A stretch of 64,000 nucleotides of DNA from Gemmatimonadota bacterium (GTDB lineage: Bacteria; Gemmatimonadota; Gemmatimonadetes; Gemmatimonadales; GWC2-71-9): assembly GCA_039591655.1 (NCBI GenBank), contig JBDHDE010000015.1:1-64000 (forward strand). Direction: 5' to 3'. Of the stretch, positions 46,001-61,881 are shown piece after piece. Position numbers and translations under genes: made by a program. Each line of letters begins with the position of its first letter. The stretch's first letter is position 1. The notes under the pieces were generated by a model that was given only the letters and a program-made list of their open reading frames with translations, did not search any database and was not told the DNA's origin.

Positions 46001-46439
46001 CACCCATGGTGTTGGGAGAGCCGAACGGGAACAGCATGTTGGAGGCCGAGGATACCGCCACGCCCTTGGGTTGGAACATGTCGCACAGGGAGAGTTCGAA
46101 GGCCCCACGGCCTGTGTAGATCGAGACGGCCTCCGGACCGGATTCGTGCTTGATCGTGTTGAGGCGCTCGACGATGAGGTCGTACGCCTCGTCCCACGTG
46201 ATGCGCTCGAACTCGAGCGTCCCCTTCGGGCCGACGCGCCTCAGGGGATGCCTGAGGCGGTGCTCCGAGTAGATGATCTCGGGGGCGTGGGACCCGCGCC
46301 GGCAGATCATGCCGAGCGGGTGACCGGTGTCCGCCCGGATGTCCTCGATCTTCCTGTTCCGCATCCCCACCTCGACCCAGCATCCCGCGGGACAGATGCC
46401 GCAGATTCCCTTCTTCCAGTCGAGCTGCTGCTGAGCCAT
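43032..46439 (-). CDS. Fusion: DMSO-reductase-family molybdopterin oxidoreductase plus IscS/NifS-type cysteine desulfurase
   Basis: N-terminal CGICPAGC...C cluster motif, RLRHPL, WGANP, IRPGTD, ADVVLPA, molydop-binding domain; C-terminal IYLDNNATT, GNPSS, FHTDAVQ, SGHKFHGPKG, SSGSAC. Confidence 0.93.
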   Translation of the reverse strand: MAQQQLDWKKGICGICPAGCWVEVGMRNRKIEDIRADTGHPLGMICRRGSHAPEIIYSEHRLRHPLRRVGPKGTLEFERITWDEAYDLIVERLNTIKHESGPEAVSIYTGRGAFELSLCDMFQPKGVAVSSASNMLFPFGSPNTMGVGALCYVSFAMIAPFVTMGRMLVNMFTDMENAEMLVVWGANPATDSPPLDMHRLEAAARRGADIVVIDPRRTETVARTGAQWVPIRPGTDGALALSLIEVMIDEELYDEPFAEQWCHGFEELRTYVQHFRPEVAESITGVPADTIRELARRICNATGACPVMYTGLEYSNSGIQAIRAVLTLFALAGQLDVPGGIGLAMLGSHFPINRSCNQENPDLDRAVAREKFPIYSNLRGESHASGLVTSVLEGKPYRIRGLIVHGASLLTSWPQTALWRDTLRALDFLVCIDRQLTADAAYADVVLPATTMFEIDSYMVYGPIFRLREKLVEPVGEARNDYLIMAELARRLGYGQLYPQSEEEMIRFALEGSGHTLEDVRESGGWVKTPTPMMDYRKWEKGGLRQDGESGFDTPTGKFEIWSTLLEEYGHEPLPKYTEPTEGPVSRPDLGEQFPLVFNSGARPHTDFRSQHHGIAGLAKDNPEPTVELSAADAARRDIRTGDLVEVRTLRGSVPFRARVTDDIVAGAIECNMGGGTPVGSKAWQDWNVNELTDLDNCDEISGFPVYKALLCDVAKVEAGTPSTRRSADRAAEACGPVVLGAPARAKAPPRRIYLDNNATTRVADAAREAMLPYLAASHGNPSSIHGVGRDAREGIETARRHVARLINARPRRIIFTGGGSEGDNLAIKGIAFANGGPGSHIVTSAIEHPAVLETCRFLEDIGYRVTYCEVDRDGVLHPETLRRALTADTVLVSVMMANNEVGTIQPIADLRAIAHEHGALFHTDAVQAAGKIPIDVNALGADLLTLSGHKFHGPKGVGALYVRRGVKLAPLVHGGKQEAGLRAGTENVPAIVGMGKAAQLALQAVRDSEETKRLRDKLAAGIRMLIPQAVLNGHADERLANTLNLTLPGLRGESLVVALDQHGISLSSGSACKSGSPEPTHVLIAMGRDEEAVHCAVRFSLSSETTEHDIDETVSALAQVLEEMETTVRFLPCK

Positions 46440-47392: not shown

Positions 47393-49678
47393 TTGAGCCC
47401 GACCGATCGCGCGACCAATACGGCCTTCATCGCCGCGGTGGTGACCGCAACCGCGATGATCGCCTTCCAGATGGCGGCCAAGGCGACGAGGGATGCGCTG
47501 TTCCTGTCCACCTTCGACGTCTCCGCCCTTCCCCGGATGGTGATCGTCGCGGCGTTGGTCGCGGTGGGCGTGGCCCTACTGGCATCCCGGTGGATGACGG
47601 CAGTCGGGCCCGGACGTCTGGTGCCCGCAGCGTTCGCACTGAGCGCCGCATTACTGTTGGCGGAGTGGGCCCTGATTGGCCCGTTTCGCCGCGGGGTGGC
47701 CATCGCCCTCTACCTGCACTATGCGGCGCTGGGCGCGGTGCTGATCTCCGGCTTCTGGTCCGTCGTGAACGAGCGTTTCGATCCGCGCACCGCGAAGCGC
47801 TACGTGGGCCGGATCGCCGCGGGCGCAACCGTGGGCGGTGTGCTGGGCGGCCTCCTGGCTGAGCGGGTCGGTGCGACCCTCTCCATGGCGGCAATGCTGC
47901 CGATCCTCGCGGGCATCCACTTCCTCTGTGCCTTCGTGGTGAACGGTGTGCCGGCAGAGCGCCGACCGGCGCCGCAGCGGCGCTCGCGCCGGAGCGTCGG
48001 ACGGCCCCCGGAGCGCTCGGGGCTCAAGACGCTGGCCAATACCCCCTATCTCCGTGGATTGGTGGCGCTGGTCCTCCTCGCCACGATCACGGAGGTCCTG
48101 ATCGACTACGTCTTCAAGGCACGAGCCACGGGGGCGTTGGGGAGCGGCGAGTCGCTGCTGCGGTTCTTCGCCGCCTTCTACACCGGTGTTTCCCTGCTCA
48201 CCGTGCTGGTCCAGGCGGCAGCCAGCCGGGTGACGCTGCAGCACCTGGGGCTGACCCGCACAGTGGCCCTGTTGCCGGCGGTCACGGGCCTGGGGAGTGT
48301 GGGGGCGCTGGCCTTCCCTGGGCTTGCCAGTGCGTCTGCGGCGCGGGGATCGGAGCAGGTCCTCCGCAACGGGCTCTACCGCTCTGGCTATGAGCTGCTG
48401 TTCACCCCGCTGCAGCCGGAGCAGAAGCGCGCCACGAAGACTCTGGTGGACGTTGGCGTCGTGCGATTGGGAGACATCCTCGGGGGGGCGATCGTTCAGG
48501 TGCTGCTCCTGGTGGCGGTAGCCGGGGTGAGCCGCTTGCTCCTGGGTCTCGCCGCGGTGATCTCCGTGGTGGCCGTGGTCGTCGCACTGGGGCTGCGCCG
48601 GGGGTACATGAACACCCTGGAACGCAGCCTGCTGTCGCGGGCCGTGGAGCTCGACCTGGAAGAGGTGGACGACATCACCACCCGTACCGCGGTGCTCCAC
48701 AGCACGGGGACGTTGGCGTTGGGCCTGACGGCGGCTCACCCGACCCCGACGCTTGATCATGCGATCCCGACGCCCGCGATGGGCGTCAAATCGCCGGTTG
48801 CCGCGGCGGAAGTGCCGGGGCGGGAAAAGGTAGCGACGCCGGCGACCCCGCTGGACCCGGAGGTGGCCTTGATCGTGGAGCTTCGGTCACGGGACGCCCC
48901 CCGCGTGATCGCCGCGTTGGGAGCGGGGCGTCTCACGCCGACCGTTGTGCCCCACGTGATCCCGCTGCTCGCCTGGGACGAGGTCGTGGCGGACGCGCTC
49001 GCGGCACTGCGTGAGGTGGCGCACCAGGTCACGGGGCAGCTGGCGGACCGCCTGCTCGATCACGGCGAGGAGTTTGCCGTGCGCCGGCGTCTCCCCCTCG
49101 CGCTCGTGGCCAGCCCGACGGAGCGCGCGCTCGACACCCTCTTCCGGGGGCTCGACGATCCGCGGTTCGAGGTGCGCTATCGTTGCGGGCGGGCGCTGGT
49201 TCGCCTACTGGAGCTCAACCCCAAGCTCCGGGTGGAAGAAGAGCGCGCCTACGCTGCGGTGCTGGGGGAAGTGGCAGTGGACAAGGGTGTGTGGGAGAGC
49301 CACCGGTTGCTCGACAAGATGGAGGACGAGGAATGGTCCCCTGTGATGGACGAGGTGTTGCGCGAACGGGCGAACCGCAGCCTGGAGCACGTGTTTACCG
49401 TGTTGTCCCTGGTCCTGCCGCGCCAACCTCTCAAGATCGCGTTCCGCGGACTTCACGCCAAGGACGCGATCCTTCGAGGTACGGCGCTGGAGTATCTGGA
49501 GAGTGCGTTGCCGGAGCATGTACGGGTGCAGCTCTGGCCCTTTCTCGAGGATACCCGTCCCCGCCGGCGGGAGTCCCGGACCACGGATGAGGTGCTGCAG
49601 GACCTGTTCCAGTCCAACCAGTCCATCGTGATGAACCTCAAGGAGCTGCGGAAGCAAAAGAAGGAGGAGTCGGGGTAG
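47393..49678 (+). CDS. TLC/Npt (ATP/ADP translocase-like) MFS domain fused to HEAT repeats
   Basis: KATRDALFLS, FWSVVNERFDPRTAKR, ELLFTPL...KRATKTLVDV..RLGD; C-terminal LDDPRFEVR, LRGTALEYL. Confidence 0.8.
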   Translation: MSPTDRATNTAFIAAVVTATAMIAFQMAAKATRDALFLSTFDVSALPRMVIVAALVAVGVALLASRWMTAVGPGRLVPAAFALSAALLLAEWALIGPFRRGVAIALYLHYAALGAVLISGFWSVVNERFDPRTAKRYVGRIAAGATVGGVLGGLLAERVGATLSMAAMLPILAGIHFLCAFVVNGVPAERRPAPQRRSRRSVGRPPERSGLKTLANTPYLRGLVALVLLATITEVLIDYVFKARATGALGSGESLLRFFAAFYTGVSLLTVLVQAAASRVTLQHLGLTRTVALLPAVTGLGSVGALAFPGLASASAARGSEQVLRNGLYRSGYELLFTPLQPEQKRATKTLVDVGVVRLGDILGGAIVQVLLLVAVAGVSRLLLGLAAVISVVAVVVALGLRRGYMNTLERSLLSRAVELDLEEVDDITTRTAVLHSTGTLALGLTAAHPTPTLDHAIPTPAMGVKSPVAAAEVPGREKVATPATPLDPEVALIVELRSRDAPRVIAALGAGRLTPTVVPHVIPLLAWDEVVADALAALREVAHQVTGQLADRLLDHGEEFAVRRRLPLALVASPTERALDTLFRGLDDPRFEVRYRCGRALVRLLELNPKLRVEEERAYAAVLGEVAVDKGVWESHRLLDKMEDEEWSPVMDEVLRERANRSLEHVFTVLSLVLPRQPLKIAFRGLHAKDAILRGTALEYLESALPEHVRVQLWPFLEDTRPRRRESRTTDEVLQDLFQSNQSIVMNLKELRKQKKEESG

Positions 49679-49702
49679 GGGCCCCCTTGGGCACAACGGG
49701 CA

Positions 49703-49738
49703 CCGGCCCTCAGCGCCCGTCGGGGTGCTGAGGGCCGG
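49703..49738. terminator. Long hairpin between convergent transporter genes
   Basis: CCGGCCCTCAGCGCCC-GTCG-GGGTGCTGAGGGCCGG (16-bp stem with one G-U). Confidence 0.65.
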
Positions 49739-49746
49739 CCTCGTTT

Positions 49747-51237
49747 CTAGAGCGTGGCTGCCGTCAGCCGGTCGTAGCGGCGGCCGATGAACACCGCCAG
49801 CGTGAGCCAGCAGAGCACCAGCACGACGTTCACCATGGCGAAGCCACCCGTGCTCAGCACGAGCAGATTGGCGCCCGCCGCGACGACGGCTGCCGATAGC
49901 AGGTCGCCGGCGCGCCAGAAGAACGAGTCGATGGCCTGCTTGGCCTTGTATTTCTCTTCCCGCGTGGTGGGCAGGAAGAGCGCGTGCCGCACGGTGTTGT
50001 TGAGCGAGTAGTCGGTAGCGTTCTCGGCGGTCTTGATCCAGCGGATGACGCCGAGGATCGGCACGAAGGCGATCGCCGCATACCCCAGGAGTGCGATCAC
50101 CGGCAGGAAGAGCAGAGCGCGGCGAACGCCGGCGTACTTGAAGACCCGGGAGACCACGAACGCCTGGAGCAGCAGCCCCAGGACGTTGACAACCGTGAAG
50201 AAGTTCGAGTAGAAAGCGGCGATGCGGTCCGTGACTTCCGCCGCGCCACCCCCCTCGGCTGCCACCGTCTGCTCCGTGAGGGCCTCCACGGCACGCCCCA
50301 GGATGTACTCGCCGTTGGTATTGACCCAGTTCAACAACATGATCAGTACGGCGATCGCCAGCAGGTAGCGGCTGCGCAGCACCAGCTGGAACGCGCCGCC
50401 CTCCGACTCGGGTTCCGGCGGTTCGACCTCGGGCTCCGGCGGTTCGACCTCGAGCTCCTCGCCGGGCTCCACCTTGAACACGCCGCTCTCCCGCTTGTAC
50501 TCCGGTTCCGGGATCTTGAACTCTCCGGTGGCGGCCCGGAACTGCCCGGTGGCCGCCGGTATCGTACCGGTGGTGAACGGGCCGGGCAGGTATGCCTCGG
50601 TGCGGCGCCGCTCCCGCGTGTCCACCACGTTCGTCATGACGGCCGCGATGATCAGGAACACGCCTGCGAGGATGAAGAGCTGGTAGATCCCGATGCCGCT
50701 CATGAGGTTGGGGATGTAGCTGCCGACCACCGCCCCGGCCGACGCGCCGACCCCCACGATGGGGAACAGCCGCTTGCCCTCGTCAGTCGTGTACACGTCG
50801 TTGGCGAACGCCCAGAACTGGGCGATCATCATGTTGTTGAAGATCCCGACCCACACGAAGAACGCGACGCCCAGGCCGAACCCGGACACCCCGATCTGCG
50901 CCACGATGTAGAACACCGCGAGGCAGGCGACGAAGAACGCCGTCACCCAGTTGATCAGCGTGCGCCGCGGAACACGGGCCGCTATGGCGCCGTAAGTGGG
51001 TACCATGACCGCCAGCAGCAGCACCATGCCGGCGGACGTGTAGCTCTTCACCTCCGCCGTGGCCCCGCCGAGGATCAGGGCCTCCCGCACCACCTTCAGC
51101 ACGTAGTAGGCGCTCAGGATGAGGAACACATTGAGCGTGAGGAGCAGCGCGTTGACGCTCTCTCCCGGGTGTACCTCGGTGAAGAGGCGCAGGAACCGGT
51201 CGACGGGACCCGGACGGTACGAGTTGGTCATGGTCAC
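49747..51237 (-). CDS. TLC/Npt-family nucleotide (ATP/ADP) transporter
   Basis: YYVLKVVREAL, QFWAFANDVYTTDEGKRLFP, DYSLNNTVRHALFLP...KYKAKQAID...RAGD. Confidence 0.88.
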   Translation of the reverse strand: MTMTNSYRPGPVDRFLRLFTEVHPGESVNALLLTLNVFLILSAYYVLKVVREALILGGATAEVKSYTSAGMVLLLAVMVPTYGAIAARVPRRTLINWVTAFFVACLAVFYIVAQIGVSGFGLGVAFFVWVGIFNNMMIAQFWAFANDVYTTDEGKRLFPIVGVGASAGAVVGSYIPNLMSGIGIYQLFILAGVFLIIAAVMTNVVDTRERRRTEAYLPGPFTTGTIPAATGQFRAATGEFKIPEPEYKRESGVFKVEPGEELEVEPPEPEVEPPEPESEGGAFQLVLRSRYLLAIAVLIMLLNWVNTNGEYILGRAVEALTEQTVAAEGGGAAEVTDRIAAFYSNFFTVVNVLGLLLQAFVVSRVFKYAGVRRALLFLPVIALLGYAAIAFVPILGVIRWIKTAENATDYSLNNTVRHALFLPTTREEKYKAKQAIDSFFWRAGDLLSAAVVAAGANLLVLSTGGFAMVNVVLVLCWLTLAVFIGRRYDRLTAATL

Positions 51238-51247
51238 CGACTCCTAA

Positions 51248-52708
51248 TCAGTGATTGCCACTCGGCGGCGCATGGACGGGCGCGCCCACCCAGAGCTTGG
51301 TAGAGGACTCCACCACGCTCTCGGTCGTGCCGACGACCGCGGCGGGTTGTTGCGCCGGGAGCAGAAGGCGTCCGCCCACGAATGCCAAGGTAGCGGCCAC
51401 GGCCGTGGCGGCCAGCACGCCGAGCTTGGCGACGCCCAGGAGGTCGGGGTCCTGGAAGGCCAGCTCGGCGATGAAGATGGCCATGGTGAACCCGATGGCT
51501 GCGGCGAAGCCGACTACCATCATGCCGCGCCAATCCACGCCCTGGGGCAGCACGCACAGCCGGAGTTTGATGGCGAGCCAGCTGAACGCCAGCACGCCGA
51601 CGGTCTTCCCGACCAGCAGCCCCAGGATGATCCCACCGAGCACCGCCATCCCACCGGGCTCGGCAAAATCGATGCCGCCGAGCCGCACGCCTGCGTTGGC
51701 CAGGGCGAAGAGCGGCATGACCCCGAAGGCCGTCCACGGATGCAGCAGCGCCTCCAGGCGCACTGCGGGAGCGATGGCCTCCCGCTGGGCAACGGCGATC
51801 TGCTGCAGCGGCTCGATCAGCTCGGGGTCGGACTTGCCGTCCGCGGCTCGCTCGCGGAACTCGTCGAGGGCCCGGTGCGCCGTCATGAGAAAGCCCTCTC
51901 GCCCGTACCACGCCCGGGCCGGCGCCAGGAGGCCGATCATCACGCCGGCAATCGTGGGGTGGATGCCGGCCCAGTAGAGCCCCGCCCACGCCAGCAGGAA
52001 GGGCAGGGGTGCGACCCCGGGCTTCACACCCATCTTCAGGAGCAGCCACCCCAGGCCCAGTCCCGCCAGCGCCAATAGCAGTCCATTGACCGCGAAGCCG
52101 CTGGCGTAGAAGATGGCGATCACCAGGATTGCCCCGATGTCGTCGATGATCGCAAAGGCCAGCAGCAGCACCCTCAGGGCGGGGGGAACCCGCTTGCCCA
52201 GGAGAGTGAGCACGCCCACCGCGAAAGCGATGTCGGTGGCCATGGGCACGCCCCAGCCGTCGGCACCGGGCCCCGACACGTTCATGGCGGCGTAGATCGT
52301 CGCCGGGACCAGCATCCCACCCACTGCTGCGGCGAGGGGGAGGGCGGCCCGCTTCACGTCCGACAGGGCGCCGTCCACGATCTCCCGTTTGATCTCCAGG
52401 CCGACCACCAGGAAGAACACCGCCATGAGGAGGTCGTTGATCCAGAAGTGGAGCGACTTCTCCATGGTCCAGTCGCCGATCCCGATGCGGAACGGCGTAT
52501 GCCACAGTGCGTCGTAGCTGTCGGCCCAGGGGGAGTTGGCCCAGATGAGAGCCACGGCGGCGGCCCCGATGAGTATGATCCCACTCGCCGCTTCGATGTG
52601 AAGGAAACGCTCGATGGGCCGGCGCACGGCCACTGCGACACGCCGGGCGGGTAGCCAGGCCCAAGGTGGGATGGTGGGAGTACCGCTCGTGGACTCGGGG
52701 TCCTTCAC
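51248..52708 (-). CDS. nhaA: Na+/H+ antiporter NhaA
   Basis: WINDLLMAVFFLVVGLEIKRE, GWGVPMATDIAFA, AIIDD, PLFALANAG, IGFTMAIFI; start uncertain. Confidence 0.95.
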   Translation of the reverse strand: MKDPESTSGTPTIPPWAWLPARRVAVAVRRPIERFLHIEAASGIILIGAAAVALIWANSPWADSYDALWHTPFRIGIGDWTMEKSLHFWINDLLMAVFFLVVGLEIKREIVDGALSDVKRAALPLAAAVGGMLVPATIYAAMNVSGPGADGWGVPMATDIAFAVGVLTLLGKRVPPALRVLLLAFAIIDDIGAILVIAIFYASGFAVNGLLLALAGLGLGWLLLKMGVKPGVAPLPFLLAWAGLYWAGIHPTIAGVMIGLLAPARAWYGREGFLMTAHRALDEFRERAADGKSDPELIEPLQQIAVAQREAIAPAVRLEALLHPWTAFGVMPLFALANAGVRLGGIDFAEPGGMAVLGGIILGLLVGKTVGVLAFSWLAIKLRLCVLPQGVDWRGMMVVGFAAAIGFTMAIFIAELAFQDPDLLGVAKLGVLAATAVAATLAFVGGRLLLPAQQPAAVVGTTESVVESSTKLWVGAPVHAPPSGNH

Positions 52709-52866
52709 GCCGCTTGTCCTCAGGGATTTGCGGGGAGGAATGGCGTCGGCCGGTGGACCGCCCCGCCGGCGGTCCACGACAGAGACAATACCCGTCACCC
52801 GGGAGCGCGCAACCCGCCGCCGGTTCCCCTGTCCGGCCGAGGGGTGCTACTCTTGATGCACCAGCC

Positions 52867-54471
52867 ATGACCGCCCCGCCCTTGCTCGACGCGCAAATAC
52901 GGACGACGCCCGGAGGCGCCGGCACGCTGCCTCTCGATATGATCCAGGCCGCGTCACGCCGCCTCGGGATCGCGGCTCTGGTGTGGGCATTCCTGTGGGC
53001 CTTCTCCCTGGTGATGAACAACCTGGTGAGCCCCATCCTCTCGCCAGGTACGCCGCTGGACGACGCATGGCCGTGGCCCGGCAACCCGGTGGCACTGGCG
53101 GTCATTCTGGTGTCCCTCGGTCTGTTTGCGTACACCCGCTGGCACGCGTGCGACTGCCAGTTCTCCCTGGACCTCGGGCTGGCGTACGAGGTCTTCCTGG
53201 CCTTCGCCATCGGGCTCGTGAACCAGTGGACCCCCAACACCGTGGGGCTGTCGTGGATCTGCGTGCTGGTTCTCGTGCACGCGATGATAGTGCCGAATAC
53301 CCGGGGCAAGACGCTGGCGGCAGCCCTATTGGCAGCGTCGATGGATCCGGTGGGCCTCGCCATTACCGCCGCGCGGGGAGTACCCGTGCCGTCGGCTCCC
53401 GTCATCCTCTGGACGTATCTGCCCAACTACATCTGCGCACTGCTGGCCGTGATCCCGGCGCAGATCATCACCAGGCTCGGCAGCCAGGTGCGGGACGCCC
53501 GCGCGCTGGGGAGCTACCAGTTGGATGAGCTGCTGGGGCGGGGTGGGATGGGAGAAGTCTACAGCGCGCGGCATCGGCTGCTCCATCGCCCGGCGGCGGT
53601 CAAGCTGATCCGGCCGGATACGCTGAGCTCCCGCGACGGTGAGAGAGCCGACACCATCGTGGCCCGGTTCAAGCGAGAGGCGGAGGCGGTCTCGAGCCTG
53701 CACTCGCCGCACACCATCGCCCTGTACGACTTCGGGGTTACGGACGAAGGCAATCTGTACTACGTGATGGAGTTGCTGCGGGGGCTCGACCTGGACTCGC
53801 TGGTGGAGCAGTTCGGGCCGGTGCGTCCCCCCCGCGCGGTGCACCTGCTGCGGCAGGCCTGCCACTCCCTAGCCGAGGCGCACGCCGGGGGACTCATCCA
53901 CCGGGACGTCAAGCCGGCAAACCTCTACTCCTGTTGGGTGGGGTTGGAGGCGGACTTCGTGAAGGTCTTGGACTTCGGCCTGGTGAAGCCACCTGCGGAG
54001 CAGGAGGCGGAACAGGTCAGGCTCACTGCCCCCGACCTGACCACCGGCACGCCGGCGTACATGGCTCCCGAGCTGGCCCTGCGCCAGGATCCGGACTGGC
54101 GGGCCGACATCTACTCCTTGGGCTGCGTGGCGTACTGGTTGCTCACCGGTCGGTTGGTGTTCGATGCGCCGACTCCCATGAAGATGATGGTCCAGCACAT
54201 CGAGACGCGGCCCCTGCCGCCGTCGCGCTACAGCGAGTTCCAGATCGGGGCCGATCTGGACGAGCTGGTGCTCGCCTGCCTCGAGAAGGACCGACGCCGG
54301 CGCCCGTCCGACGCTCGCCAACTGGCCCGGCGGCTGGCCGAGTGCGAGGTGGGAGAGTCGTGGACGCCGGAAGTTGCCGAGCGTTGGTGGCGTGCCCACC
54401 TGCCCGAGCTCGTGCCGGCGCAGGCGCGGCGGGCGTCGCAACCGGGCGTGCCGGTGACGGAAGAGGTCTGA
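52867..54471 (+). CDS. Ser/Thr kinase with N-terminal polytopic membrane domain (paralog A)
   Basis: Several TMs, then LGRGGMGEV, AAVK, HRDVKPAN, KVLDFGLVK, GTPAYMAPE. Confidence 0.93.
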   Translation: MTAPPLLDAQIRTTPGGAGTLPLDMIQAASRRLGIAALVWAFLWAFSLVMNNLVSPILSPGTPLDDAWPWPGNPVALAVILVSLGLFAYTRWHACDCQFSLDLGLAYEVFLAFAIGLVNQWTPNTVGLSWICVLVLVHAMIVPNTRGKTLAAALLAASMDPVGLAITAARGVPVPSAPVILWTYLPNYICALLAVIPAQIITRLGSQVRDARALGSYQLDELLGRGGMGEVYSARHRLLHRPAAVKLIRPDTLSSRDGERADTIVARFKREAEAVSSLHSPHTIALYDFGVTDEGNLYYVMELLRGLDLDSLVEQFGPVRPPRAVHLLRQACHSLAEAHAGGLIHRDVKPANLYSCWVGLEADFVKVLDFGLVKPPAEQEAEQVRLTAPDLTTGTPAYMAPELALRQDPDWRADIYSLGCVAYWLLTGRLVFDAPTPMKMMVQHIETRPLPPSRYSEFQIGADLDELVLACLEKDRRRRPSDARQLARRLAECEVGESWTPEVAERWWRAHLPELVPAQARRASQPGVPVTEEV

Positions 54472-54479
54472 CTGGCCGC

Positions 54480-56195
54480 CTAGCGCTCCACCGCCACCAC
54501 CCGCCCGCTGGCCCGGGCGAGATAGACCACCACTGACGAGCTCCAGCCCTCTCCACGATCCACCTGCAGCTCGATCTCCAAGAAGGGGTGATCCCCCAGC
54601 GATGCCGTTCCAACTGTGGGGCCGCCGGCGGCATCCAGGTCGATGGCCCGTTCCGCGGTCTCCAACCACTGGGTGCGGCCCGCCGGCTGGCGCTCCGGGG
54701 TCACCGCTGCGACTCGGTAGCGATACCGTGCGGTCTGTCCGGGGTAGACTCCCCGCTCGGCGCCGAGGTCGTGGAATCGCATGATCCCCTCGGCATGAGT
54801 GAAGAAGTCCAGCGGGACCACCCGGTCGAAGAAGAACCGTCCGATCCGGTCGCGGCGCTCCCCCAGGATCCGCGTGATGTAACGGGCCACCTCCGGCCGC
54901 GGATAATGGCCCTCGGCCACGATGGTCTCGAGGTGCCGGTCGGTGAAGGCCGTGATGATCTTGGCCGCCCAGTAGGCGTCCCGTTTGGTGAGGTTAGCGA
55001 AGGCCGTGTTCGGCTCCAGCGGCTTGAAGGCCATGGGCTCGAACCTCTCGCTCTCGAAGTAGCCCACTTCCTCGAGCCCCTCCGGGGGATCGAGCCGCCG
55101 CCAGACGTCCTGCTGCGTACCGAGTGCCACGGCGCGTGCCAGGATGCGGACCAGGTCCAACGTGTACTCGTGACACGCCATGGGGTACGGGCCCAGTGCC
55201 CCGGCCCCCAGGCTGCTGGCGAAGTCGATCAGGTAGTGTCGGATGAAACGCCGCCCGTCCTCCTCCACGTACATGTCCAGCGTGTTGCCCTGCTTCGTGT
55301 CATAGTGACACAGCCACGCAGAGAGAATCCGCAGGCCCCGGAGCTCGCGGCGGTCCTCGTGGTTCACGCGGTCGTTGGGGTCGTCCTGGCGTCGCCCCTT
55401 CCAGTCGAACGGTCCCATCCAGTTCCCGCCGAGGAGCCGGCTCGCCAGGGCGCGCCAGGAGCCGTCGGGCAGCCGATCAACGCGGGCCAGCACGCTATCC
55501 AGATCGGCCGCCGTCATGATGCGCTCGTTCCCGTCCGGGTCCGTGAAGTCCACATCGTCGGCGAGCACGAGCCGCTCCCGGGCGAACGTCACCACGAAAT
55601 CCTCCGGAACGTTGTAGCCCGCGGTGTGGAAGATGCGGCCGGAGATGACACCTGCCGCCGATGCCATGCCGAGGTAGCCCGGCGGATCGAACTTGATGAA
55701 GTAGGTGTCCCCCCTTCCGTCCTCGATGGTGAACCCCGGCGTCACACCCTCCGTCTTGGCGCCCACCACCGTCCAGGACGTCGAAACGTCGGGCCCCGCC
55801 ACAGTGAGTGGCCCGCGCGCTGCCGTCTCCGGATCCATGGGGAAGAGACCGATCCGGTTGGTGAACCACGCGGAGTTCGGTACCTCGTCCAGCGTGTTCA
55901 CGTTGACGGCCGGAGCCACGTGATCGCCGCCGGCGATGCCGCCGAGGCCTCGTACGAGCCGCGCTGGGTTGAGCATGCGGTCCAGCGGCCGGAAGATGGA
56001 GGCCTCGGCCCCCGAGCGGATGATGTTGGGGTCTCGCGGCTCGGGGGCCGGGATGTCCCGGCGGTCATCGGCGTGCCACGTCACCGGTGCATCCCGCAGC
56101 GGCGGCCCGCCGCCCGAGGCGGCCAGGCCCGCGAGGGCGCACAGGGCTACGGCGCTCGCGCGCCGGCTACCGCGGCGGAACCGGATCCTTCCCAT
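54480..56195 (-). CDS. Probably exported atypical kinase-fold protein
   Basis: Basic then hydrophobic N-terminus; AKTEGVTPGF, YFIKFD, HYDTKQGN, YLIDF; start overlaps the upstream barrel gene. Confidence 0.7.
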   Translation of the reverse strand: MGRIRFRRGSRRASAVALCALAGLAASGGGPPLRDAPVTWHADDRRDIPAPEPRDPNIIRSGAEASIFRPLDRMLNPARLVRGLGGIAGGDHVAPAVNVNTLDEVPNSAWFTNRIGLFPMDPETAARGPLTVAGPDVSTSWTVVGAKTEGVTPGFTIEDGRGDTYFIKFDPPGYLGMASAAGVISGRIFHTAGYNVPEDFVVTFARERLVLADDVDFTDPDGNERIMTAADLDSVLARVDRLPDGSWRALASRLLGGNWMGPFDWKGRRQDDPNDRVNHEDRRELRGLRILSAWLCHYDTKQGNTLDMYVEEDGRRFIRHYLIDFASSLGAGALGPYPMACHEYTLDLVRILARAVALGTQQDVWRRLDPPEGLEEVGYFESERFEPMAFKPLEPNTAFANLTKRDAYWAAKIITAFTDRHLETIVAEGHYPRPEVARYITRILGERRDRIGRFFFDRVVPLDFFTHAEGIMRFHDLGAERGVYPGQTARYRYRVAAVTPERQPAGRTQWLETAERAIDLDAAGGPTVGTASLGDHPFLEIELQVDRGEGWSSSVVVYLARASGRVVAVER

Positions 56196-57621
56196 GAAAC
56201 AGCCCCTTGGTCCACTGGAAGATCTGCTCGCTCTTGAGCCGGAACATCGATTGCTCACTGCTCCGGGCGAACTCCACCCGCAGCAGGAACCCCTGTCCGT
56301 CCACCAGTCGCAGACCCAGGCCGTAGGAGAACGTCAGGTTGTCCAGGTTGATCTGGTCGAGCTCGTCGAAAACCTGACCTAAGTCGGCCAGGATGTAGAT
56401 GTCGAGCCCTGCCGCCGCGGCGTGCTGGAACGCCCACAGCGGCCAGCGATACTCCGCGCTGAGCACGGTGATTCCCCTGTCCCGCCACCGGAAGTCGTTG
56501 TAACCCCGCATGAGATCGGGGTCGTCGTTGGTGAGGAGCCGCTGAAACGGGATATCCGTCGTCTGCCCCATCGGCTCGATCCACGACAGGTACCACCGCA
56601 GGGCCAGTGCATGGTAGTTGTACCATAGAGGAATGAACTGCTGCAGCTCCGCCCGAAAGGTCCAGAAGTCAATGTTGTCCTCGGGGTCCGTGCCGAGGAA
56701 GTACGACGCGCGGAGCTGACGCAGGCCTCCGCGGGTCGGCCGGCCCGTCTCCTCGAAATCCGCGTGACCCAGGAGAACCTCCAGGCTCACACCGTCGGAG
56801 CGCTCACCGAAGCCGGAAGGCAGATCGTCGGCGAACCGCTGGCTGAGCGAGGGCTCGAAATCCCCACCCGGCTCGCCGGCGCTCACTCCGGTGTAGAGTA
56901 GCTTCCCCCGAAGCAGGAAGTTGCCGATGCGTTGCCGGTAGCTCGTGCCGAGCCAGGTGAGCCTCTGCCGGTAGAACGATTCGTCGAACCGGCTGGTCTC
57001 CGGCCCGTTGCCGAAGTAGCGGGCGTTGGCCCGGTCGCGGAACCCGGCGCCGAAGCCCAGCATGCCGCCCCGGCCGATGGGGAACTGCGCGCCGCCCGTG
57101 ATTCTCTGGTCGCCCCGCACTGTGGTGTAGGCGCGGAGGCGCAGCTCGTTCCCCGGAGCGCCGACGTGATTGTGTTGGATCGAGAGGCCACCGCCGAACC
57201 CCGAGAGCCCGCCGGCGGTGATCTCCGGAAAGAGCTGGATGTTCCCCGGTGGGCGGATGAAGATGTCGAGTATCTGTTTGTCGTCCATGAACTCGACGGT
57301 CGCGAGGATCCCGGCACCTACGGCTCTGAAGGGGAAGGTGATCACGCGATAGGGGGAGACCAGCACGGCCTCCCAGAAAGACGCCGGACGGTTGGCGAAC
57401 CGGGCGGTGGCCGAGTCGGTGGGTGCCGGGATCTCGCCCCAGTAGCTCACCCCGATGCCGGTGCCCTGGAGCCGTGCCGCACTGTCGGGAACCTGGGAGC
57501 GCTCCTGCGCCGCCGCCGTGTCGACACTAGCCGAGCCAGCCAGCGTGGCACTGGTGAGAGCGAGGAGTCGCAGGCGGCGGTGCCAGCTCGCACCGCACGG
57601 CCGGGAGGGAAGGCGGTGCAC
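56167..57621 (-). CDS. Omp85 (BamA/TamA)-type beta-barrel protein without evident POTRA domains
   Basis: Signal-like N-terminus; PTRG, MRGYNDFRWRD (VRGY-like), SAEYRWP, ADLGQV, SYGLGLR; start uncertain. Confidence 0.8.
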   Translation of the reverse strand: MHRLPSRPCGASWHRRLRLLALTSATLAGSASVDTAAAQERSQVPDSAARLQGTGIGVSYWGEIPAPTDSATARFANRPASFWEAVLVSPYRVITFPFRAVGAGILATVEFMDDKQILDIFIRPPGNIQLFPEITAGGLSGFGGGLSIQHNHVGAPGNELRLRAYTTVRGDQRITGGAQFPIGRGGMLGFGAGFRDRANARYFGNGPETSRFDESFYRQRLTWLGTSYRQRIGNFLLRGKLLYTGVSAGEPGGDFEPSLSQRFADDLPSGFGERSDGVSLEVLLGHADFEETGRPTRGGLRQLRASYFLGTDPEDNIDFWTFRAELQQFIPLWYNYHALALRWYLSWIEPMGQTTDIPFQRLLTNDDPDLMRGYNDFRWRDRGITVLSAEYRWPLWAFQHAAAAGLDIYILADLGQVFDELDQINLDNLTFSYGLGLRLVDGQGFLLRVEFARSSEQSMFRLKSEQIFQWTKGLFHGKDPVPPR

Positions 57622-57634
57622 GGTCGGCCTCGGA

Positions 57635-59068
57635 TCACTCCATTTCGAAGACCACGAACCGGAGCTCGCCGCGTCGGTCCACATGGAGGACGACCGGGTC
57701 GCCCCGCGCGAGAGAGCCCAGCATGTTGGAGAGCTGCCCCACACTCACCACGTCTTGTCCGTTTACCGAGTAGATCACGTCGGCGATCTGCAGGCCGGAG
57801 GCCACCGACGGGACCCCGGCTGCCTGCGCGACCACAGCCACGCCGCCACGCTGCCTGAGCCAGGGTAGCATTGCCGAGATCTCGTCGTCCACCTCGACGG
57901 CCAGGATACCGAGCTCGCGAATGAGGTTGCGCTCCCGGCCCACCACTTCGGCGAAGGCACTGGGGTCGTTGGCCCGCTCGGCGACGGACACCTGCATGGT
58001 CAGGCGGTTGAGGCCCCGCCGCACTTCCAGCGTGACGACATCGCCGACCCGGCGCTGGTAGACGTTGACGTCGAACTGCCGGGCGTTCTCCATTGGCTTG
58101 CCGTCCAGCGACACGATGACGTCTCCCACTTGGAGGCCGGCGCGCGCCCCCGGCGAACGGGGATAGACGTCGGACACGACGACGCCCCAGGTGCGGGTGA
58201 GACGCAACCCCACCGCCAGGGTCGGCGTGATGGTCTGTGCGTTCACCCCGATCACGCCGCGGCGGACCCGGCCGCTCTCCCGGATCTGCTCGAACACGGC
58301 GCGCACGATGTTGCTGGGCGAGGCGAAGCCGATGCCCTCGCTCCCTCCGGACTGGGACAGGATCAGGGTGTTGATCCCGATGACGTGACCGCGGGAGTTC
58401 ACCAGCGGCCCCCCGGAACTGCCGGGGTTGATGGGAGCGTCGGTCTGGATGTAGGCCATCGGATGGTCGGGCTGGAGCTGCCGTCCCACGGCGCTCACCA
58501 CCCCCATCGTCACGGACGCCTCGAGGCCGAGGGGGCTGCCGAACGCAAACACGATGTTCCCCGGGCGCACCTCGTCTGAGTCGCCCAGCTCGAGGTAGGG
58601 CAGGTCGGTACCCTCGATCTTGATCACCGCCAGGTCGGTCTCGATATCCGTGCCCACTATGCTCCCCTCGGCCCGCCGGCCCACCGGTTTCACCAGCGAC
58701 CGAGCTGGGACGTCGTCAGCAGCGGGCACGGCCAACACCACGTCGAGCTGCCGGGCGCCCTCAACGACGTGGTTGTTGGTGACGATGTACCCGTCGGCGG
58801 AGACGATGACCCCGGATCCACCGCGGCGCTGGCGTCCGAGAGCCGGCGTCACACCCCGCGCTTGGCCCTCCACGGGGCCGATGGCGGTGACGTAGATCTC
58901 CACCACTGCGCGGCCCACTTGCTCCGTGAGCGCGCCGACGTACGCGCTCATATCAACCAGCACCGCCGGCGGCTCGACGGTCGGTTCCTGTGCCAGGCCC
59001 GGCGCCGACCAACCCAGGAGAGCGGCGGCGGCGAGCCACGTGGCGGTGTGGGCGGTCCTGAACTGCAT
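57635..59068 (-). CDS. HtrA/DegP-family serine protease with two PDZ domains
   Basis: Signal peptide; GSGVI, TNNHV, DLAV, IQTDAPINPGSSGGPL; two PDZ-like repeats. Confidence 0.94.
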   Translation of the reverse strand: MQFRTAHTATWLAAAALLGWSAPGLAQEPTVEPPAVLVDMSAYVGALTEQVGRAVVEIYVTAIGPVEGQARGVTPALGRQRRGGSGVIVSADGYIVTNNHVVEGARQLDVVLAVPAADDVPARSLVKPVGRRAEGSIVGTDIETDLAVIKIEGTDLPYLELGDSDEVRPGNIVFAFGSPLGLEASVTMGVVSAVGRQLQPDHPMAYIQTDAPINPGSSGGPLVNSRGHVIGINTLILSQSGGSEGIGFASPSNIVRAVFEQIRESGRVRRGVIGVNAQTITPTLAVGLRLTRTWGVVVSDVYPRSPGARAGLQVGDVIVSLDGKPMENARQFDVNVYQRRVGDVVTLEVRRGLNRLTMQVSVAERANDPSAFAEVVGRERNLIRELGILAVEVDDEISAMLPWLRQRGGVAVVAQAAGVPSVASGLQIADVIYSVNGQDVVSVGQLSNMLGSLARGDPVVLHVDRRGELRFVVFEME

Positions 59069-59115
59069 CTGGTGAGTCCTCTCGAAGCTTCTGGTTTCGG
59101 AGTCGCGCCCGGTCA

Positions 59116-60726
59116 TCAGGCGGAGATGGCGGGTGCCAGCTCCCCCTTGTCGCACGCAGCGAGCTCGGGGCCCTCGGGAAGATGCGCGTCCCACCAGCTG
59201 CGGGCCCGCTCGGCCGTCCACCGCTCCGGGAGATCGAGCGCGTCGAGCCTCCCGCCCACCTCCTCCGCCCCTGCCGGTCGGTCGCTCGGGTCCTTTGCGA
59301 GGCACTGCAGCACGAGCTCATCGAAGGCCGGCGGGATGGCGAGCTCGGAGCGCTTGGACGGCGCCTCCGGCTCGTCCGAGATGTGTCGGTGCATCATCTT
59401 GATGGGGTTGTCCGCCTCGAACACGAGCCGTCCGCTGACGAGCCAGTAGAGCACGCAGCCCAGCGCATACACATCCACCTGTTGATCCGCGCTACGCTCG
59501 CCCATGGCGAGCTCCGGCGCCATGAATGCCGGCGTCCCAGTCGTCATGTGGGGCTGCGTGAGCATCGTCTGCTCCCGGCTCTGATCAGCCTTGACCAGCC
59601 CGAAATCGAGCACCTTCACGAAGTCCAGGGAAAAGCCCATGCGGCACGTGTGGAGGTTCGACGGCTTTATGTCACGGTGGATCAGCCCTTTGGCGTGCGC
59701 CTCCGCCAGGGACTCGCACGCCTGGCGCGCCAGGTGCGCCGCCCGCTCCGGGGGAATCGGTCCGAACCGGTTCACCAGCTCCTCGAACCCGGCGCCGTCC
59801 AACAGCTCCATCACGTAGTAGAACGCACCGTCCTCGGCGACGCCGAAGTCGTACAGCTCGATGGTGTGCGGCGACCGGAGGGTCGCGGCGGCCTGCGCCT
59901 CCCGCTTGAACCGCTCCACCGCTACGTGCTGTTGAGCGGCTGTGCTCGCCCCGAGCACCTCTGGCCGGATCAGCTTGATCGCCGCCGGCCGCGCCAGGAG
60001 ACGGTGCTCGGCGTGGAACACCTCTCCCATTCCGCCGGCTCCCAGGCGATCACCCAGTTTGTAGCTGCCCAGCTCCCGTGCCTGGCGCACCTGGCGGCCG
60101 AGTCCGCGAATGATCTTCGCGGGAAGGACGGCCAGCGCCGCGGTGAAGTACGTGGGTGCGAACGCGAAGACGGCCTCGGCTGCGCCCATGGTGATCTCCA
60201 CGCCGCGCAGCTTGGCGATGGCGAGACCCACGGGATCCATCGACGCCGCGAGCAACGAGGCGACGAAGATCTTGTGGGGTGTGTTGGGCGCGATGCTCGG
60301 GTAGACCAGGATGACGATCGCGATCCAGGACAGTCCGTCAGTTGGGGAGGGGGCCCACATTTGGAGGACCCCGATCAGGAAGGCGGTCACCACCTCGAAC
60401 CCCAGGCCCAGGTCGAGCAGCAGGTTGGGCCGGTGGTGCAGCCGCGCGGCAACAAACACCATCGCCACCGACAGGACGAGCCCGGTGCCGGCGATCGCAT
60501 TGCCCGGCATGGGCCACGGTCGGTCGCTCATGAGCATGGGGGTGTCGACGAACCGCGTAACGGCGTTTGCCAGGAATAGGCCGAACGCCCACAGCGAGGC
60601 GACTGCCAGGCTCGCGATGCCGACCCGCCTGCACGACTGGGAGAGCAACTCGGTGGGCAGGGACATGCGCCCGCTGCGGGTGGAGCCCGACGGCGTCGCC
60701 GCCGCGTGGATTCTCTCAGCACTCAT
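59116..60726 (-). CDS. Ser/Thr kinase with N-terminal polytopic membrane domain (paralog B)
   Basis: Same architecture as 52867; LGAGGMGEV, AAIK, HRDIKPSN, KVLDFGLVK, GTPAFMAPE. Confidence 0.93.
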   Translation of the reverse strand: MSAERIHAAATPSGSTRSGRMSLPTELLSQSCRRVGIASLAVASLWAFGLFLANAVTRFVDTPMLMSDRPWPMPGNAIAGTGLVLSVAMVFVAARLHHRPNLLLDLGLGFEVVTAFLIGVLQMWAPSPTDGLSWIAIVILVYPSIAPNTPHKIFVASLLAASMDPVGLAIAKLRGVEITMGAAEAVFAFAPTYFTAALAVLPAKIIRGLGRQVRQARELGSYKLGDRLGAGGMGEVFHAEHRLLARPAAIKLIRPEVLGASTAAQQHVAVERFKREAQAAATLRSPHTIELYDFGVAEDGAFYYVMELLDGAGFEELVNRFGPIPPERAAHLARQACESLAEAHAKGLIHRDIKPSNLHTCRMGFSLDFVKVLDFGLVKADQSREQTMLTQPHMTTGTPAFMAPELAMGERSADQQVDVYALGCVLYWLVSGRLVFEADNPIKMMHRHISDEPEAPSKRSELAIPPAFDELVLQCLAKDPSDRPAGAEEVGGRLDALDLPERWTAERARSWWDAHLPEGPELAACDKGELAPAISA

Positions 60727-60845: not shown

Positions 60846-61694
60846 CTAGCCTGCCTTCCGCCGCTTCGCTGCCGTCTTCTTCTTGGCAGCGCGCTTGACC
60901 TGCTTCGGCGCAGGCGCCGCGTCGCCCTTGGCCAGGCTCGCCTTCAGCGCCTCCATGAGATCGATGATCTGTGTTTGAGGCTCCTCCGCCGGCGCGGCGG
61001 TGATCTCCTCGCCCTCGATCTTGCGCTGGATCTGCTCCAGCATGCGCTTGCGGACGTCGTCCTCGTAGTTCTCGGGCTTGAACTCGTCGGAGGCCGCCTG
61101 CCGGATGAGCTGCACTGCCAGCGTGAGCTCCTCATCCTTCACGCTGCCCTCCCCGATGGGGACCTCCGAGAACGAGCGCAGCTCGTCGGCGTAGTGCAGC
61201 TGTTCCATCACGAGGCCCTCGCCCATGGGCCGCACCAGGACGAGGTACTGCTTGCCGCGGGCCGCGTAGCGGGCGAGGGCCGAGAGGCCGGCTTCCTGCA
61301 TCGCCTTGCTCAACAGCCGGTAGGCCCGCTCGCCGCCCTTGTCGGGACCCAGGTAGTAGATCTTGCTGAGATAGCGCCGCTCCACCTGCTCGGCGGGGAC
61401 GAACTCGGCGATGTCGACCGACTCAGTGGCCTTCTCCTCCACCGCCTTGAGCTCCTCGGGCGTGAACAGGACGTACTGATCCTTGGCGAACTCGTAGCCC
61501 TTGACCATGCCCTCCCGGTCCACGATCTCGCCGTCGGTCTTGCAGACGTATTGCTGCTTGAGGCGGGAGCCGCAGTCCCTGTGGACCCAGTTGAAGCTGA
61601 CCTTGGTCTTGGGCTCGGCCGACGAGTAGAGCTTCACCGGGACCGAGACCAGGCCGAATGACACCGTGGCAGAGCCGATGGGGCGTGCACTCAT
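60846..61694 (-). CDS. ku: NHEJ DNA end-binding protein Ku
   Basis: SFGLVSVPVKLYSS, VKGYE, YYLGP, LHYADE, IIDLMEALKASL, basic tail. Confidence 0.96.
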   Translation of the reverse strand: MSARPIGSATVSFGLVSVPVKLYSSAEPKTKVSFNWVHRDCGSRLKQQYVCKTDGEIVDREGMVKGYEFAKDQYVLFTPEELKAVEEKATESVDIAEFVPAEQVERRYLSKIYYLGPDKGGERAYRLLSKAMQEAGLSALARYAARGKQYLVLVRPMGEGLVMEQLHYADELRSFSEVPIGEGSVKDEELTLAVQLIRQAASDEFKPENYEDDVRKRMLEQIQRKIEGEEITAAPAEEPQTQIIDLMEALKASLAKGDAAPAPKQVKRAAKKKTAAKRRKAG

Positions 61695-61724
61695 GGGGTA
61701 CCTTGCCAACCCGTAAGGGGCGGA

Positions 61725-61753
61725 ACTATAAGGACTTCCGGCCCGTGTCGCAA
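61725..61753 (-). promoter_or_regulatory. sigma70-like promoter of ku
   Basis: TTGCGA-N17-TATAGT on the minus strand. Confidence 0.5.
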
Positions 61754-61841
61754 GCCGCCGCACCGGCGCGATACGAGCTAACCCGATGTGCCGTAAGCCG
61801 TTAGAATGCGCAACTTGATGGGGAGCGTTCCACTCGGGTAA

Positions 61842-61871
61842 TTGCGACGTGCCAGTTGGCCTGCGTATGAT
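61842..61871 (+). promoter_or_regulatory. sigma70-like promoter of ligD (very short leader)
   Basis: TTGCGA-N18-TATGAT ending 10 nt before the ATG; no SD sequence. Confidence 0.5.
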
Positions 61872-61881
61872 ACGCCGTCAC

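Follow-up and report, generated by a model that had tools for sequence, protein, structure and literature searches.

The stretch of DNA analysed here (64,000 nt, hereafter the window) opens contig JBDHDE010000015.1 (C15 in our numbering) of a Gemmatimonadota bacterium whose assembly (GCA_039591655.1) amounts to 3.3 Mb at 95% completeness. Between positions 47393 and 60726 it encodes, among other proteins, two carriers of the NTT (TLC/Npt) family, an Omp85 barrel and an orphan protein that we call XK. The barrel and XK form a real, widespread and conserved envelope module, and this module is linked to NTT carriers beyond background. The explanation that we favour, with about even confidence, is that XK acts as a barrel-linked exported kinase phosphorylating envelope targets with ATP moved outward by the linked NTT; in this picture we infer the periplasmic location, the docking to the barrel, ATP as the cargo, the outward direction and the substrate. 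Papers are cited below by PMC number.

XK (54480-56195, minus strand, 571 aa) has no useful match in Pfam, NCBIfam or PDB sequences and was placed by structure comparison only. Residues 1-29 are signal-peptide-like, and the model of the protein, built from 146 sequences (pLDDT 93, pTM 0.93), predicts a kinase fold at about 127-463 and an FnIII-like domain at about 458-563. Against 48,161 solved chains the top 14 rows are all atypical kinases (Z 13.4-9.2), headed by CtkA (Z 13.4, rmsd 4.0, 225 aligned residues); Fam20C (12.8), Hydra Fam20 (12.6), PI4KIIa (12.0), CotH (11.7), actin-fragmin kinase (11.3) and HipA (10.0) are among the further matches, and the best non-kinase row has a Z of 8.4. 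The C-terminal 100 residues resemble fibronectin-III domains (Z about 8). The kinase-like fold that a sequence-only reading of the window had expected for this gene is thereby borne out, and its motifs do occur in the order given there, namely KTEG (147), IKFD (167), HYDTKQGN (297) and LIDF (322), with conservation above chance. In the best 150 representatives (<50% identity) K168, D299 and N304 are each conserved at 93% and D324 at 98%, their roles as beta3 Lys, catalytic Asp, Asn and metal-binding Asp being set by motif order rather than by residue-level superposition. The family also has a D-F-G/A motif. The full K/D/N/D set is kept in 253 of 292 aligned sequences, and the other 39 depart from it.

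An export signal, likewise proposed earlier, is predicted throughout the family by a heuristic based on hydrophobicity. Among 142 relatives with an N-terminal extension, a hydrophobic N-terminal stretch was seen in 134 (internal windows, 31 of 1533) and a lipobox-like motif in 53. We therefore predict that XK is an exported atypical kinase of the CtkA/Fam20C/PI4KII/CotH type. Its substrate cannot be read from the modelled fold, since the structural matches span protein, glycan and lipid kinases. The family is large, with 4671 clusters at 50% identity when E up to 0.001 is accepted and 1741 at 1e-30. In one catalytically degenerate clade (P0166, P0176, P0263) the C terminus is extended at length (to 1158 aa), and Pfam offers no useful match to the added part.

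Fam20C and Fam20B (PDB 5yh0, 5xom, 4kqa) belong to the same atypical kinase fold class (Z 12.0-12.8) and have a signal peptide, and Fam20 kinases of the secretory pathway work outside the cytosol and need an imported ATP supply. XK differs from them in its low identity (8-11%), its bacterial origin, its Omp85 partner, its C-terminal FnIII-like domain and a catalytic loop of the form DxxxxN, unlike the DRHHYE motif of Fam20. PF06702 (Fam20C) is not matched by the XK family and the Atlas lead reaches only 0.81; the likeness is in fold only. The best structural matches as a group comprise CtkA (3akj), HipA/HipT, actin-fragmin kinase, PI4KII and Legionella MavQ (Z 13.4 to 9.2), and HipA_2 is weakly matched by 10 of 33 family members (best E 1.4e-4). 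Unlike the CtkA/HipA group, XK has no antitoxin neighbour, bears a predicted export signal, comes from environmental hosts and keeps a fixed barrel partner. Bacillus CotH (Z 11.7) is an atypical kinase that acts on envelope structure, as we propose for XK; it keeps the Asp/Asn/Asp equivalents without a DFG motif (PMC12189002), whereas XK has D-F-G/A and sits in a diderm envelope with a barrel and a carrier. PF08757 (CotH) is not matched among 33 XK members at E up to 1.

The barrel gene (56167-57621, minus strand) encodes 484 aa and matches NF047779 (E 1.5e-15, below cut-off) and nothing in Pfam. POTRA is not matched in Pfam and NCBIfam scans, and the length of the protein leaves little room for it. 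Lid-lock motifs of the forms (L/M)RG(W/Y) and FxDxG (PMC11358297) are represented by MRGY (371) and LADLG (411), and their RG and DxG columns are at least 90% conserved among 91 relatives. We class it as a predicted POTRA-less, noNterm-type Omp85 barrel. The noNterm and 'Metallo' Omp85 subfamilies, noted as similar to each other, have no POTRA and share the lid-lock motifs with the barrel here (PMC4104836, PMC11358297); 'Metallo' Omp85 carries a PF00149 domain, and at XK loci PF00149 recurs as a separate neighbour instead. In the available main texts of these two papers no word starts with 'kinase' and no NTT link is reported.

We assembled 124 XK loci, 45 from GTDB and 79 retained from 578 confirmed in a partial metagenome scan; some are near-duplicates, and counts of loci are to be read as non-independent draws. 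Of the 111 loci whose flank was long enough, 109 have the barrel gene directly upstream of XK and the other two have it close by; the pair likely works as one envelope unit. Given this upstream gene and the family-wide predicted export signal, XK was rejected as a HipA toxin. Two-partner secretion (TpsB/TpsA) joins a POTRA-bearing barrel to a passenger with a TPS domain; in Pfam and NCBIfam scans neither domain is matched in the barrel or in XK, and no beta-helix appears in the model of XK. Tandem or inverted duplications of XK or of the barrel-XK unit are present at L031, L036, L039, L041-L044, L072, L110 and L135, and in several Acidobacteriota a phosphoesterase lies between the duplicated units.

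An NTT gene is found within 5 kb of XK in 22 of 40 fully flanked loci and directly adjoins the pair in 18 of 108. Twenty of the 45 GTDB loci contain an NTT, and for all of the remaining 25 one is encoded elsewhere in the genome (best E 2e-86 or lower). Among 200 Gemmatimonadota genomes, NTTs are present in 19/19 with a strong XK versus 80 of the 181 others (44%); 18 of the former were called by a single query and one (G060) by a profile, while the background was called by the single query only and may be underestimated. An Acidobacteriota-centred sample of 150 genomes gave 23 of 28 with XK versus 39 of 122 without (32%). The five XK genomes lacking an NTT stayed negative after a full rescan. 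In three, which represent two lineages, the beta3 Lys of XK is gone along with either the Asp of the catalytic loop or the metal-binding one, and [DE]..[NQ]..D is kept in 23/23 NTT-bearing genomes (one XK copy examined in each). G060 has only one distant, long and probably fused NTT, and its XK is also degenerate.

The XK-NTT linkage was seen in Gemmatimonadota, Acidobacteriota, Eisenbacteria, Krumholzibacteriota, Rhodothermales and a Fibrobacteraceae-labelled bin, and across these lineages it recurs with differing gene orders and NTT subclades. The conserved linkage of Npt, kinase and barrel genes on which the sequence-only reading depended is thus found in several phyla. Its seven-gene composition does not hold as a unit; barrel and kinase make up the core, accompanied by an NTT gene either in the vicinity or at another genomic site.

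Cassettes that lack XK offer a second view of the same arrangement. Thirteen genomes have a close-clade NTT and no XK, and in 12 of them the STK-(HtrA)-NTT-NTT/HEAT cassette (STK, Ser/Thr kinase) carries an 850-aa, signal-bearing fusion protein, often accompanied by an exported metallophosphoesterase. By its model (pLDDT 92; Foldseek E 7e-11), the fusion has a barrel of the BamA/TamA type as its C-terminal half. From a Gly-rich loop, an FRSxDK strand, DWDRH and DRD motifs and weak CotH and HipA leads, we read its N-terminal domain as a putative second atypical kinase. Searches with that domain returned nothing relevant in Pfam (18 domains) and Atlas leads below 0.9, the Foldseek rows of the model being all barrels. 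Homology between XK and the fusion is not detectable by profile (probability 1.9%). The fusion may correspond to the 'Metallo' Omp85 type (PMC4104836) split in two. Longer forms of the fusion (1477-4215 aa) were looked for and none turned up, which is weak evidence.

The fusion is present in 69 of the 200 Gemmatimonadota genomes, 33 of them without an NTT, and in NTT-less genomes it adjoins DUF4956 and often PPK1 too. Within 10 kb of the fusion there is a close-clade NTT in 15 of the 69 genomes, DUF4956 (often with PPK1) in 33 and both in none, an exclusivity that one would predict if the phosphoryl donor came from either partner. It fits with exported kinases needing a donor supply, for which an NTT is one way. 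PF03219 found no NTT in 34 genomes but is insensitive as a genome query (3/5 positive controls found); a dedicated profile run on 14 of the 33 fusion-bearing genomes gave 13 with no match and one weak match. Left out of our genome counts were weak or short XK matches (G193, G003 and seven others), the weak fusion match of G135, genomes G057 and G274, and the DUF4956 match of G182, which was itself retained as one non-carrier row in the denominators 200, 181 and 131. A DUF4956 or PPK link was also considered for XK and rejected, with 0/124 loci (profiles from 3-5 Gemmatimonadota sequences).

The genome of the window has its own copies of these parts. At C5:32585-36246 (L145:4586-8247) a lipoprotein-like metallophosphoesterase is followed by an 855-aa kinase-like/Omp85 fusion with no adjoining NTT or DUF4956, and at C31:1408-4287 a DUF4956-like membrane domain is fused to PPK1 (959-aa frame). 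Convergent with the latter, C31:4297-10127 holds a second PPK1 and genes resembling Ppx/GppA, SixA and CHAD (these three by eye). An SdiA-regulated (PF06977) propeller recurs beside the fusion in DUF4956-type loci (L146, L148, L149, L162, L164).

Of the two carriers in the window, the NTT-HEAT protein (47393-49678, plus strand, 761 aa, about ten hydrophobic segments) matches PF03219 at 38.9 bits (E 6e-10) and, in a C-terminal HEAT-like helical region, HEAT_2 at E 2.5e-4, under its cut-off; a domain scan found no cyclic-nucleotide-binding domain. The stand-alone NTT (49747-51237, minus strand, 496 aa) matches PF03219 at 47 bits (E 2e-12) and has a Thr-rich, repeated PAATGx insertion in its central loop. 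The genes are convergent and their products only 22-24% identical. Both score above the PF03219 gathering cut-off of 21 bits, with 10-11 hydrophobic segments as for an MFS-like topology, in agreement with the one HEAT-fused and one stand-alone TLC/Npt-like gene noticed earlier, and both fall far under that of TIGR00769 (37.4 bits for the stand-alone carrier and 32.9 for NTT-HEAT, versus 387.2). Judged by these profiles, they belong to the NTT family by Pfam and lie outside the canonical ATP/ADP translocase clade by TIGR00769. Among PDB sequences the stand-alone carrier matches only NTT1 of plants and chlamydiae (E about 1e-5). Its residues K48, R51, K429, K431 and K433, kept in 91-98% of 46 stand-alone relatives, align with basic residues of the solved NTT1 in the first and last charged segments, the first-segment alignment being below threshold. 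In canonical ATP/ADP translocases K155, E245 and K527 are required for binding and exchange (PMC3306366), in a numbering that could not be reconciled with that of the PDB chain.

The net direction of an exchanger follows gradients, and high cytoplasmic ATP combined with a periplasmic source of ADP would make such a carrier an exporter. The premise of the sequence-only reading that the periplasm generally lacks ATP was too strong: micromolar ATP is present in the E. coli periplasm, by a route described as unknown (review, PMC7432876). NTTs and NTT-HEAT fusions, the same family by Pfam and the same two architectures as here, have already been listed in free-living bacteria including Gemmatimonadetes, with function unknown (PMC5381601). 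The roles suggested there are uptake, thylakoid or cell-to-cell ATP transfer, and the available portion of the paper reports no kinase or barrel neighbours of NTTs.

In the mechanism that we favour, XK would likely be held in the periplasm under the barrel, and the NTT would likely move ATP outward in exchange for ADP. XK would then phosphorylate envelope targets; proteins handled by the barrel are our pick, and a glycan or lipid target seems about as likely. A nearby exported metallophosphoesterase may reverse the phosphate mark. In Gemmatimonadota a polytopic STK might in addition act on the Thr-rich central loop of the carrier and so regulate it, which is a weak lead. The PAATG insertion occurs in 30 of 46 stand-alone carriers, and an STK was detected in the locus for 22 of those 30 versus 2 of the 16 carriers without it; the association is confounded by lineage, so STK control is only a lead. 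The insertion of Gemmatimonadota carriers (50370-50640 in the window) has the form TTGTxPAATGQF..ATGEF..SGVF and is a candidate phosphorylation site. HtrA and NhaA would be extras.

Several observations weigh against outward ATP supply to a barrel-linked kinase. No NTT lies within 5 kb in 18 of the 40 flanked XK loci. The sister genomes G313 and G373, each a single contig, encode an intact K/D/N/D kinase and a barrel, and no NTT was found in them, a counterexample that probably reflects one event. The criterion by which NTT-bearing genomes keep an 'intact' kinase was chosen post hoc, and the strict K/D/N/D set (14/23 versus 2/5) shows no difference. Conversely, 54 of the 200 Gemmatimonadota genomes have an NTT and neither kinase, and 12 distant-clade NTT loci are without any common neighbour. 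The genomes are related, so Fisher p-values overstate the association. For the fusion, the kinase fold is suggested by motifs and weak leads only; the protein stands beside neither NTT nor DUF4956 in 21 of 69 genomes, shows no overall association with NTTs (36/69 versus 62/131 genomes), and in a tree of 64 copies has both contexts confined to few clades, which amounts to some 1-3 switches and not to 48 observations. The kinship of the carriers with NTT1 is remote (33-37 bits versus a cut-off of 387), and where the NTT1 'ELWG' segment has its Glu, the alignment shows Gly131. Finally, nucleotide uptake is what the characterised NTTs perform, with NAD or other nucleotides as the cargo of some, and one of them failed in nucleotide transport (PMC5381601).

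It is conceivable, and we think quite improbable, that barrel and kinase are a real module with which NTTs share no function, co-travelling on mobile or clustered DNA in lineages rich in both. The high NTT background (44% and 32%), the relatedness of the loci and the G313/G373 pair are in keeping with this, as is the local co-travel of NhaA, PPIase and Ku. The linkage nevertheless recurs over several lineages, whereas the company of NhaA and PPIase is almost confined to Gemmatimonadota, and the NTT cassette keeps an exported, barrel-linked enzyme even where that enzyme is swapped.

An unlikely alternative with a more specific content is that the barrel passes XK to the surface or beyond, in a two-partner or PlpD-like manner, and that XK works as a secreted effector on outside, host or prey ATP, the carriers importing scavenged nucleotides. 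CtkA, the top structural match, is titled a proinflammatory kinase of Helicobacter and is a secreted protein. The overlapping barrel-passenger gene order resembles that of two-partner operons (PMC11358297), the import by characterised NTTs agrees with such a role (PMC5381601), and the two intact-kinase genomes in which no NTT was found would be accommodated. Two-partner barrels recognise their cargo through POTRAs, however, and POTRA was not detected on this one; 53 of 142 XK relatives look like lipoproteins, the protein that takes the place of XK is joined covalently to a barrel of its own, and catalytic decay accompanies the lack of an NTT in three of five genomes.

The remaining neighbours of XK differ by lineage. 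Within 5 kb of XK in the 40 fully flanked loci there are metallophosphoesterase genes in 11, polytopic STKs in nine and HtrA in seven. Restricting the count to the 18 fully flanked GTDB loci outside Gemmatimonadota gives NTT in seven, metallophosphoesterase in eight, polytopic STK in two and HtrA in none. HtrA and polytopic STKs are thus mostly Gemmatimonadota additions, and outside that phylum the exported metallophosphoesterase is a commoner partner of XK than either. HtrA (0/18) and NhaA were rejected as core parts; the latter is a local passenger, which accompanies XK in five of the 45 GTDB loci and there only in Gemmatimonadota.

The phosphoesterases found in 11 of 40 loci would also suit a pathway that takes up a phosphorylated solute or nucleotide, in which the kinase fold binds or transforms the solute, the NTT imports the product and no ATP is exported. 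We regard this as distinctly unlikely. The persistence of degenerate XK copies beside barrels (39 of 292) and the varied cargo of NTTs (PMC5381601) speak for it. The full catalytic set in 253 of 292 sequences argues instead for phosphotransfer, lid-lock Omp85 barrels are described as protein-handling and not as solute pores (PMC4104836, PMC11358297), and no solute-specific enzymes recur among the clustered neighbours.

The other genes of the locus complete its layout. The minus-strand run begins with STKb (59116-60726; PF00069 E 1e-41), a polytopic Hanks-type STK, and continues after 47 nt with an HtrA/DegP protease (57635-59068) that by domain scans has a signal-peptide-like start, intact His/Asp/Ser motifs and two PDZ domains; 13 nt separate HtrA from the barrel gene, whose end overlaps the start of XK by 29 nt. 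All four genes of the run described earlier are present, and the block STKb-HtrA-Omp85-XK reads as one putative transcription unit. The paralogous STK said to close the run, STKa (52867-54471; PF00069 E 1e-37, motifs intact, about six hydrophobic segments), is indeed a polytopic Hanks-type paralogue of STKb (52% identical) and yet lies outside the run, on the plus strand and convergent with it; its open reading frame spans 52666-54471, with ATG 52867 as the likely start. An NhaA Na+/H+ antiporter gene (51248-52798, minus strand; PF06965 E 1e-132, TIGR00773 above cut-off), missing from the earlier description, separates STKa from the carriers. Between the convergent carrier genes a consensus scan places a 16-pair GC-rich hairpin (49703-49738), likely a terminator common to both. 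Mixed orientations and the hairpin rule out a single operon for the whole set, which instead comprises several transcription units; a promoter scan of the locus gave matches at chance level.

Seven paralogous STKs are encoded in the genome, on C15 (2), C23 (2), C10, C40 and C71, and share an N-terminal membrane domain of 5-6 helices without a Pfam match. Ku and LigD (non-homologous end joining) adjoin the cassette at 60846-64000; five of the 45 GTDB loci have Ku close to XK, a Polyangiaceae bin among them. On the other side (43032-46439, minus strand) a 1135-aa protein fuses a molybdopterin oxidoreductase to a class-V aminotransferase, presumably a NifS-like cysteine desulfurase; related genes occur in six loci.

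We found no description of an assembly of NTT, Omp85, kinase and periplasm in the literature within reach of our search, which excludes most subscription papers. Each part belongs to a known family. More broadly, and only tentatively, we suggest that many uncultured diderms run a dedicated periplasmic phosphorylation system, in which Omp85-docked atypical kinases and exported phosphatases would be combined with interchangeable donor modules, either an outward NTT ATP/ADP exchanger or a PPK1/DUF4956 polyphosphate route. The cassette makes testable both the role of NTTs in free-living bacteria (PMC5381601) and the route of ATP over the inner membrane (PMC7432876). If true, the XK family, with its 1741 clusters, would add a class of extracytoplasmic bacterial kinases, orphan POTRA-less Omp85 barrels would gain a role as enzyme platforms, and an ATP exporter would become usable in periplasmic engineering. 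The system would then be a bacterial counterpart of secretory-pathway phosphorylation and would provide the first function for NTTs in free-living bacteria.

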